Below are positions 880 to 10,675 of a stretch of 64,000 nt of DNA, piece by piece. The stretch comes from Escherichia coli. Lineage in GTDB: Bacteria > Pseudomonadota > Gammaproteobacteria > Enterobacterales > Enterobacteriaceae. Position numbers and translations under genes: made by a program. The DNA lies in assembly GCF_003018115.1 (NCBI RefSeq), contig NZ_CP027457.1; one strand, written 5' to 3'. Each line of letters begins with the position of its first letter. Within the stretch, counting starts at the first letter, position 1. Below the pieces are notes generated by a model. The model did no database searches and had not been told where the DNA came from. It was given only the letters and a program-made list of their open reading frames with translations.

Positions 880-2600
880 CATGATCAATTATGAATTGCA
901 ACTATTTCTGTAGTCACTTTTGTGGGGACAGTCCACAAAACTGCCAACTTCCGCTTCTTGCTCTTAGCGGACATTAGCATAGGCTATTTACCATAACGCC
1001 TCATTACGCGCACCGCCCAGACTGACTCAGCGCGTTTCTGGCATATCCCCGGTAAAACAAGTAACAAACCACCCGAAAATGAACACCAGAAACGCGACTT
1101 AAGAATCTACCCTATGAATGGATATGCACTCAACCGAATCGATCTTGGTTTCAATCTTTTTTATCGGGATCAGGCTTCTTTTTAGGTAACTTCGGGGGCT
1201 TAACTTGCTGATGACTTTGCGTTCGGCGCGTAAGCCAGGGATGGTCAGCTTTAGGTTTAACATAGTATTTTGAGCGTAAATCAATACGGGCATTATCCAC
1301 TCGTTCATGGACACTCTTTTCATCATCCAGTGGTATAGGCTCCGGGCCATCAACATACTTTTCCCAGCCCAGCGCTTTCCCGTCATACAGAACGTTAATT
1401 TCACCGTCAAAGTTCTCGCATACAGTAACAACCGAATGCCTAAGTCGATATCCCCGGCCCTCACTGCGTACCTGAAACGCACTGCTTTTGTACTGGAAAG
1501 TGAGATTTTTAGACAGAACGCGCTTCGCCTGTAGGCTGAAGATATAACCCAGTTCCTCTTCAGAATGGTGCACATCAAGATGAGCATTATCAGTAGTACG
1601 AGGCGACGTAGCGAACCGGTTGTTATAGGCTTCAATAAAGGTCGGCAACCATGCATTTGCTGTTTCAATATCACTGATATTCTGAAGCCGCATTTCTTTG
1701 ACCAGCCTGTCCTGTAGTGTCTGATTGGCGCGCTCTACCCGCCCTTTTGCCTGCGGGCTGTTGGCATGGATTGGCTCGATGCCCAGTGTCTTTATCGCAC
1801 GAGTGAACTGGGTCAGCTCACCTTCCCGCTCTGGGTTATTTACCCTGAATATACTGTGTCTATCAGAGTAGAGAGCGAGCGGTACGCCATGATCATTAAG
1901 GTAACCCCGGAGGGTTTCCATGTAAGCCCGGGTTGTTTCAGCAGGCACAAAACGCAACGCCATCAACGCACTGGTGGCATCATCAATGAAAACGATCAGT
2001 GTACATCTGGGGCCTCGATTTTCAAACCAGTCATGAGGTGAGCCATCAATCTGGATCAGTTCACCGTAAGATGGTCGTCGCATGCGGCGTTGATATATAC
2101 GGGCAATTTTACGACGGCGTTCACGCCATAACCCCTCTTCTATCATCCACTTTCTGAGAGTTTCAACGGATAAAGATAAACCGTGTATCTCGCGCAATTT
2201 TTCGCACGCAAACGTAGGTCCAAAATCAGCGTAACGGCCTTTGAGGAGTGAAATTACTGTTGCTCTGAATTCAGTAGAAAAGGAATTATTAGGACGCTTT
2301 CCACGTCGGTGGGAAACCAGACCAGAAGGCCCTTCATTTCTATACCGTTGCACCAGACGTTTAACCTGCCGAATAGAAATGCCAATGCGTGCCGCAGCTT
2401 GTTCCTGAATAATCTGAAGTCGGTGGAGTTCCTTATGACTCATCGTAACAGTCTCTTTGATCATGAAAAATCCCCCAGAGAATTGTCTGGGGACATTTTA
2501 GAATGGTTCAAAGGGGACATTACAGCTTGGTGTTAACAATAGCCTGCTTCTCCGTGCCTTTCGGCACGTAAGAGGCTAACCTACATGTGTCTAGCATGAA
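880..2600 (-). mobile_element. IS481-family-like insertion sequence, boundaries not resolved
   Basis: single 437-aa transposase ORF with N-terminal HTH and rve-type DDE core; interrupts prophage synteny between flxA and the replication module; ends are approximate. Confidence 0.45.
1151..2464 (-). CDS. DDE transposase, IS481-family-like
   Basis: 437 aa; HTH-like N-terminus (ARIGISIRQVKRLVQRY), integrase-core motifs (IDGSPHDWF..., LYSDRHSIF, E in RANQTLQDRL), basic C-terminal tail. Confidence 0.75.
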   Translation of the reverse strand: MIKETVTMSHKELHRLQIIQEQAAARIGISIRQVKRLVQRYRNEGPSGLVSHRRGKRPNNSFSTEFRATVISLLKGRYADFGPTFACEKLREIHGLSLSVETLRKWMIEEGLWRERRRKIARIYQRRMRRPSYGELIQIDGSPHDWFENRGPRCTLIVFIDDATSALMALRFVPAETTRAYMETLRGYLNDHGVPLALYSDRHSIFRVNNPEREGELTQFTRAIKTLGIEPIHANSPQAKGRVERANQTLQDRLVKEMRLQNISDIETANAWLPTFIEAYNNRFATSPRTTDNAHLDVHHSEEELGYIFSLQAKRVLSKNLTFQYKSSAFQVRSEGRGYRLRHSVVTVCENFDGEINVLYDGKALGWEKYVDGPEPIPLDDEKSVHERVDNARIDLRSKYYVKPKADHPWLTRRTQSHQQVKPPKLPKKKPDPDKKD

Positions 2601-2798
2601 ATTGGCCTCAGATTAATGTTAAGCGTCTTGCAGGACGCGTAATGTTAACTGGGGCTTTTCTCTATCTGCCGTTGGTGTCCATGCCCGAGGCAGATAGCCT
2701 CAAGCACCCGCAGTCATTCTACTTAACTAAGATTTCCCCGCAAACCGTTTTTGTCCAGCACAGTAAATATCCAACTAAACCAATGGAGTTCGCTGTAT

Positions 2799-2978
2799 TT
2801 ACCGCCAGTATTCAATGCACATGACCGCCATGAACACCCCTAAAAAAAGGGCATTTATATATCCAAATATTAATATCAAAACATCAACTTTTTCCATATA
2901 CCTTGCTGTGAAGATGATGGGCATACATGATGCGAACAACCAGAACGCAACAAACAAAAACTGCAATGCGTTTTTCAT
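2799..2978 (-). CDS. small hydrophobic protein (59 aa), unknown function
   Basis: ORF MKNALQFLFVAFWLFASCMPIIFTARYMEKVDVLILIFGYINALFLGVFMAVMCIEYWR with two predicted hydrophobic helices; consensus AGGAGG RBS 5 nt upstream of the ATG on the minus strand. Confidence 0.4.
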   Translation of the reverse strand: MKNALQFLFVAFWLFASCMPIIFTARYMEKVDVLILIFGYINALFLGVFMAVMCIEYWR

Positions 2979-3245
2979 TATTCCTCCTACAATCAATGTG
3001 CAATTACATTTAAACACACCTCAATTTGGCCGGACATATAAATATCTAAACCAGAAAAAATCACTTACATAGCGTTACAAACTCTTTAGTCTAAAGGTTC
3101 ATCGTAAAACATTCCCCATACTTATCAGTCCGTTCCGCGCCAGGTAGCTCATTGCCTTATCTGGCAACCTGTAATCAGGTTTCCGCTTTTTCAGTTGGCT
3201 GGTCGTTTAACCGACATAGTTAATCCATTAATCTAGTTGCCGGAT

Positions 3246-3660
3246 GTTGGTGGATTTTCGCGTTTTAGTTGTTCATAAAAGTGCACAGCTTTAACCAGTT
3301 CTTCTGATGTAACTGGGACTGGTGAGGCAGTGAATAAGGCCTGAATTTGATAGTTCGGCCTGTCGTTACAATCCTCTTTTTTCGGTACATATTTCCAGTC
3401 ACCAGACCACTACTTCCCCTGAAAGTCCGTAACGCCTTTTTTCACGTAGCGATATCGCCATGCCACTGGTTTTGCTTGCCCCGCCGTTTCATGCCCTTCC
3501 TGATAATTAATCTCGCTCATTCATCGCCCCACTCATCACAATATGCTTCGACCGGAGTTTTTCCCGCTTCATAGTCATCACGCTAGGATTCGACATCAGC
3601 AGCACTTCCACCGCGTAACTCACCATAGTCCATTAATAGTTCATCCCGCTCTTCAAAACT
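3246..3660 (-). pseudogene. degraded prophage gene remnants (short ORFs broken by stops and frame changes)
   Basis: minus-strand translation gives runs such as MSEINYQEGHETAGQAKPVAWRYRYVKKGVTDFQGK and WSGDWKYVPKKEDCNDRPNYQIQALF... in shifting frames; continues across the IS66 target site. Confidence 0.25.
3653..3660. repeat. target site duplication TCAAAACT (left copy) of the IS66-family element
   Basis: identical 8-mer immediately outside both inverted repeats. Confidence 0.8.
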
Positions 3661-3741
3661 GTAAGCGTCGTCTCAGCACCGTCTGGCAGATCCTGAAATT
3701 CCTGAGAGAATAGTGGACACCAAATATGGTGGACGCAATCC

Positions 3742-4146
3742 ATGAAATCATTAACCGCAGTGCGTAAAAAAAGCCCTAATTATCCCGTTGAGTTCAAAAT
3801 CAAAATGGTTGAACTCTCGCATCGACCAGAGATCTCCGTAGCGCAACTCGCTCGTGAGCATGGGATCAACGATAATTTGCTGTTCAAGTGGCGCCAGTAC
3901 TGGCGCGAAGGAAAACTACGTCCTCCTTCAACAACAGAAAACAACGTGCCTGAGCTGCTCCCGATAACACTTGATGCCGAAGATGTTGTCCCTACAACCT
4001 CCCCCCGGTCACAACCTGTAGCTGCTGCGACACCTGAATCACTCAATATCAGCTGTGAAGTGACGTTCCGGCACGGATCACTCCGTCTGAATGGTGCCAT
4101 CAGCGAAAATATCCTGAACCTGCTGATACGGGAGCTCAAACGTTGA
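3742..4146 (+). CDS. IS66-family TnpA (orf1)
   Basis: 134 aa, HTH-like N-terminus; first ORF of the IS66 triad. Confidence 0.8.
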   Translation: MKSLTAVRKKSPNYPVEFKIKMVELSHRPEISVAQLAREHGINDNLLFKWRQYWREGKLRPPSTTENNVPELLPITLDAEDVVPTTSPRSQPVAAATPESLNISCEVTFRHGSLRLNGAISENILNLLIRELKR

Positions 4147-4490
4147 TCCCATTACCATCAGGGACAAAGATCTGGCTGGTCGCTGGCATCACCGATATGA
4201 GAAACGGCTTCAACGGCCTGGCGGCAAAGGTGCAGACGACGCTGAAAGACGATCCGATGTCAGGTCACGTTTTTATCTTCCGTGGGCGTAATGGCAGTCA
4301 GGTAAAGCTCCTCTGGTCTACCGGCGATGGACTGTGTCTGCTGACCAAACGGCTGGAGCGCGGCCGCTTCGCCTGGCCGTCAGCCCGGGATGGCAAAGTG
4401 TTCCTCACACCGGCACAGCTGGCGATGCTGCTGGAAGGTATCGACTGGCGGCAGCCTAAAAGACTGCTTACGTCCCTGACTATGTTGTAA
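4143..4490 (+). CDS. IS66-family TnpB (orf2)
   Basis: 115 aa MIPLPSGTKIWLVAGITDMRNGFNGLAAKVQ...; overlaps the tnpA stop. Confidence 0.8.
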   Translation: MIPLPSGTKIWLVAGITDMRNGFNGLAAKVQTTLKDDPMSGHVFIFRGRNGSQVKLLWSTGDGLCLLTKRLERGRFAWPSARDGKVFLTPAQLAMLLEGIDWRQPKRLLTSLTML

Positions 4491-4538
4491 GCCTCTTTAT
4501 CCTGGTCGACGCTGAATGAGCCTGGTAATATACCCGGT

Positions 4539-6074
4539 ATGAGCAGCTCACTTCCTGACGATATCAATGCACTGAAACGTCTCCTTGCCGAACAGGAGGC
4601 GCTGAACCGTGCCCTGCAGGAAAAGCTGAACGAGCGTGAACGCGAAATAGACCATCTGCAGGCACAGCTGGATAAGCTGCGCCGGATGAACTTCGGCAGC
4701 CGCTCGGAAAAAGTCTCCCGTCGTATCGCACAGATGGAAGCTGACCTGAAGGCACTTCAGAAAGAAAGTGATACCCTTACCGGTCGGGTTGACGACCCGG
4801 CCGTGCAGCGCCCGCTGCGTCAAACCCGCACCCGCAAACCGTTCCCCGAATCACTCCCCCGCGATGAAAAACGGCTGCTGCCGGCAGCGTCATGCTGCCC
4901 GGAATGTGGAGGCTCGCTGAGCTATCTGGGTGAGGATGCCGCCGAACAGCTGGAGCTGATGCGCAGCGCCTTCCGGGTTATCCGGACTGTACGTGAAAAG
5001 CATGCCTGTACTCAGTGCGATGCCATCGTGCAGGCCCCCGCGCCTTCACGGCCCATCGAGCGGGGTATCGCAGGACCGGGGCTGCTGGCCCGCGTGCTGA
5101 TCTCAAAGTATGCAGAGCACACCCCGCTGTACCGCCAGTCTGAAATGTACGGCCGCCAGGGCGTGGAGCTGAGTCGTTCACTGCTGTCGGGCTGGGTGGA
5201 TGCATGCTGCCGGCTACTGTCACCGCTGGAAGAAGCGCTTCAGGACTATGTGCTGACTGACGGTAAGCTCCATGCTGATGACACGCCTGTCCCGGTGCTG
5301 TTGCCAGGCAATAAGAAAACGAAGACCGGGCGGTTATGGACCTACGTTCGTGACGACCGTAACGCCGGGTCAACGCTGGCGCCGGCGGTGTGGTTCGCTT
5401 ACAGCCCGGACAGAAAAGGCATCCATCCGCAGACCCATCTTGCGGGGTTCAGTGGTGTACTGCAGGCGGATGCATACGCCGGGTTCAACGAGCTGTACCG
5501 GGATGGCCGGATAACGGAAGCCGCCTGTTGGGCTCACGCCCGCCGTAAAATCCACGATGTGCACGTTCGCACCCCGTCAGCCCTGACGGAGGAAGCGCTG
5601 AAACGGATCGGCGAACTGTACGCCATCGAGGCAGAGATAAGGGGAATGACGGCGGAGCAGCGCCTTGCCGAACGTCAGTTGAAAACGAAACCGCTGCTGA
5701 AATCCCTGGAAAGCTGGCTGCGTGAAAAGATGAAAACCCTGTCGCGACACTCAGAACTGGCGAAAGCGTTCGCATACGCCCTGAACCAGTGGCCGGCGCT
5801 GACGTACTATGCAGATGATGGCTGGGCTGAGGCGGACAATAACATCGCTGAAAATGCGTTGCGGATGGTCAGTCTGGGCCGCAAAAACTACCTGTTCTTC
5901 GGTTCGGATCATGGAGGAGAGCGGGGAGCGCTGCTGTACAGCCTGATCGGGACGTGCAAACTGAACGGAGTGGAGCCAGAAAGCTACCTCCGCTATGTCC
6001 TTGACGTCATAGCCGACTGGCCGATAAACCGGGTCGGCGAACTGCTCCCCCTGGCGCGTAGCACTGCCGACTGA
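4539..6074 (+). CDS. IS66-family transposase TnpC (orf3)
   Basis: 511 aa with N-terminal coiled-coil, CxxC pairs (CCPECG, CTQCD) and DDE-type core typical of IS66 transposases. Confidence 0.85.
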
Positions 6075-6115
6075 ATAACACATCCCCGTCAATACGGTTC
6101 TTGCTGCACGCTTAC

Positions 6116-6123
6116 TCAAAACT
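6116..6123. repeat. target site duplication TCAAAACT (right copy) of the IS66-family element
   Basis: identical 8-mer immediately outside both inverted repeats. Confidence 0.8.
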
Positions 6124-6593
6124 GATGTTATATTTAGCTGAACAAAAATCAGCCACTTTGTTCTTCCTCATCGTCTTTTATTTCGTGGTATGAGTAATTG
6201 CAGTAGTTAAAGAAAATTTCTTATGCTCCGTCATGAATTTCCTCAGGTGTTGCGTCATCGTCCACTTCGAATACATCCTCAAAATCTCCACCAGCTATTC
6301 CCGTTTCAATAATAATTTTGAACTTTCGCATTTCACTACCGCCCTTTCGGGCGGCCTCCTGATGTTCTGAGGGTGCAGAAATCCATCCGGTTAAGGATTA
6401 AATTTTATTTACAGAACTGAATTTAATTATTCAGATATACGTATCTGTAGCCTTACGAATCTACTCACTGGATGCCTCTTTCATAAAAATAATCCAGTGG
6501 GTTTTATCGTTTTTTCCCTGTTCGTTGACAGATAACAGGTTTTCTGTCTGTCAGTGCCAGAATCTGGCTTACCGGTATTTGCGTTTCATTCCA

Positions 6594-6950
6594 TTAAAAA
6601 ATCAGAACGCCGTGCGGCCTCAACACCCGAAAGGCTTCTTTAAATCTCTGTCGCGAATCATCACGCCAGGCATCTTTATTCAGCCGTCCATATTTCTTTC
6701 CCATCCAGGCGTTATCACCAACACTCTCAAGATGCGGAGGGTCTAATACAACCATCGAAAAAGATGCGTCTGCAAATGATAATGCACGAAAATCTGCGAT
6801 AATGTCAGGGCTGATAATCAAGCGTCTCCCATTGCGTAATGTGTATCCTTCTTTTCTGATATCGCTGAATATCGCCCGTTCGTCAGACTTATCGAACCAG
6901 AACATGCGGCTGCCACAGCACATATCAAGAATGGTTGCCGGTGCACTCAC
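6594..6950 (-). CDS. small SAM-dependent methyltransferase-like protein (118 aa), possibly truncated or orphan
   Basis: G-loop-like motif ILDMCCGSRMF and a DPPH motif (DPPY-like amino-methyltransferase motif IV); start overlaps the stop of the upstream ORF by 4 nt. Confidence 0.4.
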   Translation of the reverse strand: MSAPATILDMCCGSRMFWFDKSDERAIFSDIRKEGYTLRNGRRLIISPDIIADFRALSFADASFSMVVLDPPHLESVGDNAWMGKKYGRLNKDAWRDDSRQRFKEAFRVLRPHGVLIF

Positions 6951-7369
6951 TGCGCCACGTCCTGAAAATTACCCTGATAGAAAGCCAGTATGCGCTGCAT
7001 AACTTCGCTCTTCCGGCACTCGCGACAGATTATGTTTAGGCGACTGTCGTAGCGACGTATTTCTCCGTCAGGTGATGACCAGATAAGGTCCGGATCAACC
7101 ACAGCAGGTTTCTTCACCTTTGCCCTCGAGAGTTTTTTGCGGGCGTTTTGCCAGTCCTTACGCGCCTGTTCAGAGGGGAATAACCCGTAGCCGGAGTTGT
7201 ATACATCGCCACTGGCTACCAGCTCTCTGGCAAGAACGCTCATCAGATATCTAGTCGCACCTGTTTTAGCTTCCAGTTGCCGTAACGTCTCACGGCCGCT
7301 CTGGCGCACGAGTTCCACCACCTGCCATTTAATTTTTTCCCGCTCTTCTTGTGTAAAAACTTTTGCCAC
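6947..7369 (-). CDS. hypothetical prophage protein (140 aa)
   Basis: ORF immediately downstream of the replication gene on the same strand; no recognisable family from sequence alone. Confidence 0.4.
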   Translation of the reverse strand: MAKVFTQEEREKIKWQVVELVRQSGRETLRQLEAKTGATRYLMSVLARELVASGDVYNSGYGLFPSEQARKDWQNARKKLSRAKVKKPAVVDPDLIWSSPDGEIRRYDSRLNIICRECRKSEVMQRILAFYQGNFQDVAQ

Positions 7370-7409
7370 AAGTCCCCCTTAAAATTACCTCATGACCTGA
7401 AATCAACAC

Positions 7410-10622: not shown

Positions 10623-10675
10623 TTTCTGGTGACGTTTGGCGGTATCAGTTTTACTCCGTGACTGCTCTGCCGCCC
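10623..10675 (+). ncRNA. dicF: DicF small RNA (ftsZ-targeting, processed from the dicA operon transcript)
   Basis: sequence TTTCTGGTGACGTTTGGCGGTATCAGTTTTACTCCGTGACTGCTCTGCCGCCC followed by a T-run, between ydfC and dicB. Confidence 0.8.

Follow-up and report, generated by a model that had tools for sequence, protein, structure and literature searches.

A 118-codon reading frame in an Escherichia coli Qin-type prophage is almost certainly the remnant of a phage methyltransferase gene

In the 64,000-nucleotide stretch of Escherichia coli DNA analyzed here (the window), a 118-codon open reading frame (ORF) with methyltransferase motifs overlaps the end of a 140-codon gene in a defective lambdoid prophage. 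We conclude with high confidence that this ORF is the N-terminal remnant of a phage methyltransferase gene of approximately 160 codons, killed within a Qin prophage by the combination of a nonsense mutation and a frameshift. In the scenario that we favor, the ancestor comprised about 162 codons and belonged to the accessory genes of a phage, encoding a compact, single-domain class I SAM methyltransferase without a target-recognition domain and belonging to a family that is generally annotated as orphan DNA methyltransferase. Inactivation in the Qin lineage proceeded through an AAA → TAA change at codon 119 and the gain of one G 26 codons further on, after which replacements accrued at otherwise conserved residues. 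The 118-aa product, if made at all, might still be translated through coupling to the upstream DUF977 gene once DicA repression is lifted.

The Locus Lies in a Qin-Type Defective Prophage

Many complete E. coli chromosomes match positions 6100-7400 of the window at 100% identity, and in one of them, that of strain YDC107, the annotated features have the same coordinates as in the window. The dicA-dicC-DicF-dicB-ydfABCD module and the integration beside rspB in the annotation of this identical DNA mark the region as a Qin-type cryptic or defective lambdoid prophage at the Qin site, with the locus forming the distal part of its early-right operon. On the minus strand, the genes follow one another in the order dicC (cro-like), a ydaT-like gene, an O-like replication gene, the DUF977 gene and the methyltransferase ORF. 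The features of the region are as follows.

First in annotation order (YDC107 annotation): ydfV, flxA, ydfW, then an ISNCY transposase fragment
3742-6078: IS66/ISEc22-like element (tnpA, tnpB and a 511-aa transposase ORF), with the transposase called frameshifted by PGAP in the identical YDC107 DNA
6149..6331, minus strand: DUF7167 pseudogene with an internal stop (PGAP on identical DNA, and sequence), directly downstream of the methyltransferase remnant
6594..6950, minus strand: 118-codon ORF with a GTG start, retaining three quarters, from the 5' end, of a decayed gene for a phage class I SAM methyltransferase
6947..7369, minus strand: intact 140-aa DUF977 gene (YdaW-like), its GTG start preceded by the Shine-Dalgarno sequence AAGGGGGA
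7410-8375/8429, minus strand: O-like replication initiation gene of 321/339 aa (phrog_391, E 1.3e-91; PGAP WP_000054512.1)
Past the replication gene (YDC107 annotation): YdaT-family gene, dicC, dicA, ydfA, ydfB, ydfC, dicB, ydfD
10624-10675, plus strand: DicF sRNA (Rfam, 76.7 bits), located where a Qin prophage should have it, between ydfC and dicB
After ydfD (YDC107 annotation): exonuclease, excisionase, integrase, then rspB and rspA

The O-like replication gene is immediately upstream of the 140-aa ORF, on the same strand and in the same operon, so that the placement of the two ORFs directly downstream of a replication gene in a preliminary description of this DNA, made from the sequence alone, is borne out. 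So is its remark that no restriction endonuclease partner is nearby, as none is annotated near the two ORFs. DUF7167 represents a second pseudogene in the same operon as the methyltransferase remnant, and its internal stop indicates decay across the region; beyond the IS66 element, another hypothetical gene is likewise flagged as broken by PGAP. The IS66-family element itself is inserted approximately 70 bp beyond the DUF7167 remnant. Elsewhere in the window, a full-length sok antitoxin RNA (2538-2709, minus strand; Rfam, 104 bits) implies a hok/sok-type toxin-antitoxin locus within the prophage remnant.

An Intact DUF977 Gene Overlaps a Methyltransferase ORF

Profile searches of both ORFs, which the preliminary description had proposed as a check, returned strong matches. 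The 140-aa ORF aligns with the entire length of Pfam PF06163 (DUF977; 101.5 bits, E 5e-29, cut-off 22.1, profile positions 1-134 of 134) and with phrog_142 (E 1.6e-47), which carries the label 'Ren-like exclusion protein' in PHROGs, and its boundaries coincide with those of PGAP WP_001151262.1. It encodes a complete DUF977/YdaW-like protein without sign of damage, for whose function neither a PDB sequence search nor PADLOC provided leads. The 118-aa ORF matches phrog_954 ('DNA methyltransferase', 229 positions) with an E value of 6.7e-58, although only over profile positions 52-165, whereas an intact relative covers positions 50-206. Taken together, the DUF977 and phrog_954 scores identify both ORFs as real genes rather than chance reading frames. 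NCBIfam profiles gave no meaningful match for either, and the Pfam matches of the 118-aa ORF are marginal, with Methyltransf_11 at 21.6 bits against a cut-off of 21.2 over only 22 residues and Methyltransf_25 at 18.1 against a cut-off of 27.

Several marks of the class I fold are retained in the 118-aa ORF. The G-loop-like LDMCCGSRMF and the DPPH motif pointed out in the preliminary description occupy residues 8-17 (window 6900-6929) and 70-73 (window 6732-6743), respectively. The former contains motif I (LDMCCGS, with D9 and G13), and D30 closes strand β2; the motif I residues and D30 are invariant or nearly so in a diverse family alignment. Motif IV of N6-adenine and N4-cytosine amino-methyltransferases, (D/N/S)PP(Y/F/W/H), is present as DPPH directly after strand β4 and is nearly invariant in the same alignment, although the residue that precedes it is altered in the window copy (F69L). 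Given the retention of motif I, the acidic residue of β2 and DPPH, residual SAM binding by the 118-aa ORF would be possible.

The two genes overlap, both on the minus strand and both with GTG starts, and the stop/start overlap reads GTGA (6950-6947, minus strand) rather than ATGA as previously described. This arrangement is consistent with translational coupling of DUF977 and the methyltransferase remnant. E. coli 20AR1039, whose DUF977-methyltransferase pair is intact, has an identical GTGA junction, and an ATGA overlap occurs instead in a Klebsiella phage relative. The pairing recurs in some lambdoid prophages but is not obligate, since a DUF977 gene lies upstream in only 9 of 80 viral methyltransferase loci; we therefore rejected the notion of a conserved two-gene module.

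Two Lesions Separate the ORF from Its Conserved C-Terminal Block

DNA alignment with intact relatives reveals two lesions in the methyltransferase gene and, beyond the first of them, a stretch that is still homologous to the conserved C-terminus of the family. The relevant features are listed below.

6594..6596, minus strand: premature stop, TAA for AAA (K119), from the DNA alignment with intact relatives (column 366) and translation
6516..6518, minus strand: GGG where intact relatives have GG (+1 G insertion), from the same DNA alignment (column 444)
6461..6593, minus strand: 3' remainder of the pseudogene, reading WNETQIPVSQILALTDRKPVICQRTGK and then, after the frame change, KTHWIIFMKEASSE followed by a stop (three-frame translation)

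Codon 119 is AAA in all relatives aligned and TAA in the window gene; the corresponding lysine does not vary among 120 close homologs, and its conservation in the diverse alignment is 90% or more. The additional G lies 26 codons past the TAA; it changes the reading frame, in which a further stop then follows at 6504-6506. Reading through the first stop accordingly gives F118-stop-WNETQIPVSQILALTDRKPVICQRTGKKR-stop, and the +1 frame continues with KTHWIIFMKEASSE-stop. When both lesions are undone in silico, the result is a 162-aa protein that matches PADLOC MTase_II (PDLC03288) over positions 3-163 of 169 (E 1.8e-66) and the PADLOC orphan methyltransferase oMTase (PDLC03730) over positions 5-152 of 153 (E 3.4e-45), and the ancestral gene therefore corresponds to 6461-6950. 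The reading frame is thus recognizably homologous past the stop codon, which the preliminary description had missed, and the persistence of this homologous 3' sequence points to mutation rather than to a different gene design. The ORF is indeed an N-terminal fragment of a broken gene, as that description had allowed for, but the break consists of a nonsense change and a one-base insertion in place of the deletion envisaged there. In agreement with this, PGAP records the locus in strain 13E0767 as a pseudogene ('SAM-dependent methyltransferase; frameshifted; internal stop'), whereas in most genomes the 118-aa ORF is annotated as an ordinary 'class I SAM-dependent methyltransferase' CDS under WP_001310834.1.

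The C-terminal coding sequence that is still there directly after the stop would also be expected of a split enzyme, as previously suggested, in which the 118-aa protein would supply the N-terminal part and join a C-terminal part translated on its own to give an active methyltransferase. We consider this extremely improbable, as the post-stop stretch (6504-6593) contains no in-frame ATG, GTG or TTG and no called ORF, the +1 frameshift interrupts it and leaves the conserved THWIIF strand in another frame, and a two-gene arrangement is seen in no relative. Hardly more credible is programmed recoding to a full-length enzyme by UAA readthrough and a subsequent -1 frameshift in the G/A run. Both lesions do lie in homopolymer contexts (TTTTTTAA and GGGAAAAAA, respectively), as recoding would favor; nevertheless, two independent rare events would be needed in one mRNA, the intact relatives need none, and the replacements at conserved sites described below argue for loss of selection. 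In addition, no stop codon terminates more strongly in E. coli than UAA, which further counts against readthrough.

Truncation Removes Part of the Predicted Core Sheet

The fold was modeled twice with AlphaFold2. An initial model that drew on 52 close homologs reached a pLDDT of 71, gave no Foldseek match at E ≤ 0.001 and was discarded; a second, built from 116 diverse sequences, reached a pLDDT of 95.1 and a pTM of 0.90. Its elements are, in residue numbers:

7-9: β1
26-30: β2
34-46: hairpin
64-69: β4, then DPPH
82-87 and 95-109: helices
110-121: β5
127-131: helix
138-144: β6
150-156: β7

In this second model, the stop after residue 118 cuts strand β5, and strands β6 and β7 are lost altogether, so that the 118-aa ORF lacks the complete seven-stranded sheet (β1 to β7). 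Truncation also removes the nearly invariant residues K119, W120, P138, T150, F155 and K157. More generally, the full-length family domain is absent from the ORF: the conserved C-terminal third is lost, its characteristic block being encoded past the TAA and split by the frameshift. We infer that the 118-aa product would be unable to complete its seven-stranded core sheet and would be devoid of methyltransferase activity, in which case the methylome of the strain should be unaffected by the gene.

These data bear directly on the suggestion that the 118-aa protein works as an orphan methyltransferase that is minimal by nature. Such a reading could draw on the retention of motif I (LDMCCGS), D30 and DPPH, on the CDS annotation in many genomes and on the presence of the same allele in approximately 479 of them. 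It nevertheless appears very unlikely, given that all intact relatives are about 40 residues longer and carry a highly conserved block there, that the stop would fall inside β5 of a confident model with β6 and β7 gone, that F69L and G102R alter nearly invariant residues, and that homologous 3' sequence persists beyond the stop. The description 'minimal orphan methylase' fits instead the intact family, whose members span approximately 160 aa and have neither a target-recognition domain nor an endonuclease neighbor. By the same token, the earlier point that 118 aa cannot hold both a catalytic domain and a target-recognition domain is true and yet misleading, since the intact members of ~160 aa have no target-recognition domain either.

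Replacements at Conserved Sites and Lineage-Wide Fixation

The remnant has also changed upstream of the stop. In the 120 closest homologs, 88 columns reach a conservation of 95% or more; the window copy deviates at seven of them, not counting K119 (H36Y, C39R, D40N, P58S, F69L, R76S and G102R), and both F69, which adjoins DPPH, and G102 are nearly invariant in the diverse alignment as well. The dN/dS ratio of the window copy lies at 0.18-0.26 against intact relatives. Over 112 shared codons, it is 0.18-0.23 against either of two intact relatives whose own comparison yields 0.089, and the DUF977 gene of the same genome pair gives 0.097. This increase is modest and stems from few substitutions, but its direction fits what decay would produce. 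Furthermore, two Qin alleles differ from each other by more replacements at conserved sites (R76S and L99S).

At the population level, the methyltransferase region is matched in 900 of 5426 complete E. coli genomes. About 479 records carry the Qin allele (≥95% identity), and some 420 records at 80-95% identity represent copies in other prophages, of which two were inspected and both proved intact. A query repaired for both lesions found no match at 100% identity among the complete E. coli genomes; it retrieved 478 records at 98.8%, all with both lesions, and a single record without the extra G, yet with the stop and the 118-aa CDS retained. In the absence of any perfect match to the repaired query, the lesions are real and fixed throughout this prophage lineage. 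One of the records with the Qin methyltransferase remnant is NZ_CP026085.1, deposited as 'E. coli strain DH5alpha' (4.83 Mb). The Qin prophage of K-12 presumably lacks this region, and the record may therefore be mislabeled.

The occurrence of a near-identical allele in hundreds of genomes could be held against the pseudogene reading, as it might reflect retention; the vertical inheritance of one prophage, however, explains the uniformity of the allele equally well. If there were retention, the truncated product could have been co-opted for a noncatalytic role; it might, for example, bind SAM or disturb methyltransferases of its own family that arrive with other phages. Such a role would account for its persistence across many E. 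coli lineages and would sit well with the preserved, possible translational coupling to the intact DUF977 gene. Co-option nonetheless appears very unlikely: persistence is explained by the vertical inheritance of one cryptic prophage, neighbors with obvious internal stops persist just as uniformly, the two Qin alleles differ nonsynonymously at the conserved sites R76S and L99S, and the half-sheet that the model would leave exposed makes a stable protein unlikely.

The Intact Parent Family Is Compact and Widespread

The family from which the remnant derives comprises phage single-domain class I SAM methyltransferases of ~155-170 aa and is very widespread (phrog_954; PADLOC MTase_II/oMTase). The members used for comparison include the following.

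Klebsiella phage ST846-OXA48phi9.2 QBP07693: intact relative, 160 aa
Pectobacterium phage ZF40 gp20: intact relative, 158 aa
Gordonia phage Pickett gp57: intact relative, 158 aa
The Stx2c-phage copy and the E. coli 20AR1039 copy: intact relatives
E. coli O157 prophage copies: further family members

The 120 closest database clusters are mostly 155-170 aa long, with a subset near 248 aa; 80 of 80 viral loci match over ~152-164 residues, and in 1982 representatives of 50%-identity clusters the domain corresponds to about query positions 6-158. A conserved C-terminal block, KWNETQIP...RTGK..THWI.F.K, extends from E. coli phages through Gordonia phages. Identity to the E. coli copy amounts to 63% in Gordonia phages, 45-55% in phages of Streptococcus, Listeria, Enterococcus, Staphylococcus, Porphyromonas and Bacteroides, and 35% in a haloarchaeal virus, so that identities of 45-63% span phages of Proteobacteria, Actinobacteria, Firmicutes and Bacteroidetes.

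Intact members consist of one domain of ~160 aa without a target-recognition domain. Some representatives are extended, either by a C-terminal ~90 aa (proteins of ~250 aa) or by an N-terminal ~60-80 aa (~225-235 aa), and these extensions match no Pfam family, which speaks against a hidden target-recognition domain; they may be mis-called starts, gene fusions or unrecognized accessory domains. Methyltransf_11 is matched by 98 of 116 family members. Although single-sequence and shallow-profile searches against PDB sequences yielded nothing significant, a diverse family profile matched PH0226 (E 1.8e-5).

The 'DNA methyltransferase' labels of the family are annotation, and we found no paper that characterizes either the family or the 118-aa ORF; work on silent prophage orphan methyltransferases in group A streptococci provides general background only (PMC8597746). 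Intact members may methylate exocyclic amino groups, as suggested by DPPH and by their structural resemblance to Trm11, M.TaqI and HemK. It is conceivable, if rather unlikely, that the parent family is odder than its label and acts as a non-sequence-specific DNA amino-methyltransferase, on RNA, or in dependence on a partner, with the window copy dead in any case. RNA would come into question because the structural neighbors include tRNA and rRNA m2G enzymes, and partner dependence because a large DNA methylase gene adjoins the small gene in phages ZF40 and Pickett.

In ZF40 the large 'DNA methylase' is gp21 (locus 2471-4342) and in Pickett it is gp56 (locus 1-1495); the two phages are unrelated, and the small methyltransferase lies downstream of the large methylase in one and upstream of it in the other. 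Several further phage records show two methyltransferase features under the match. Such neighborhoods may represent either methylase clusters or a partnership.

Comparison with Known Systems

Over its 118 residues, the window ORF shares 81% amino acid identity with the Stx2c-phage copy and 59% with the Gordonia copy of the phrog_954/PDLC03288 family. It has in common with the family the LDxCCGSRMF, D30 and DPPH motifs, as well as its place among the accessory genes that temperate phages carry in their early region, without an endonuclease partner. In contrast to family members, the window copy stops at codon 119, is frameshifted thereafter and lacks ~40 conserved C-terminal residues; with its replacements at conserved sites in addition, it is a pseudogene and not a working member.

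The closest known systems also include nucleic-acid amino-methyltransferases with a (D/N)PP(Y/F/H/W) motif IV, namely, the gamma-class M.TaqI, the tRNA m2G10 enzyme Trm11, TrmN/Trm14, RsmC and HemK/PrmC. With Dam-type (PF02086, PF05869) and beta-class (PF01555) enzymes the family shares the phage-carried, orphan state and a DPPY-like motif. The preliminary description had also raised a truncated Dam-like gene, of which the truncation stands, as alignments with intact relatives demonstrate, while the kinship to Dam does not: neither the window ORF nor its intact relatives match Dam (PF05869) or MethyltransfD12 (PF02086) at E ≤ 1, and the motifs follow the order I then IV. The order in the beta class is IV then I, and PF01555 (N6_N4_Mtase) draws weak, subthreshold matches from 16 of 116 family members and none from the window ORF.

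In other Qin-type prophages, DNA identical to the window or at least 98.8% identical to it, annotated as WP_001310834.1 or as a PGAP pseudogene, occurs in about 479 complete-genome records. There it has the same neighbors (DUF977, the DUF7167 pseudogene, dicC and dicA) and shows no material difference from the window. The window copy is thus an ordinary gene remnant that is already annotated, one more copy of a known allele, and it exemplifies how, outside K-12, the Qin prophage decays one gene at a time. WP_001310834.1 is nonetheless deposited as an ordinary methyltransferase in hundreds of E. coli genomes although it represents an inactivated remnant, and surveys of methylomes or restriction-modification systems will arrive at inflated numbers if they include it among the orphan methyltransferases. 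Beyond such annotation hygiene the window remnant matters little, and the interest rests with its strikingly conserved intact parent family.
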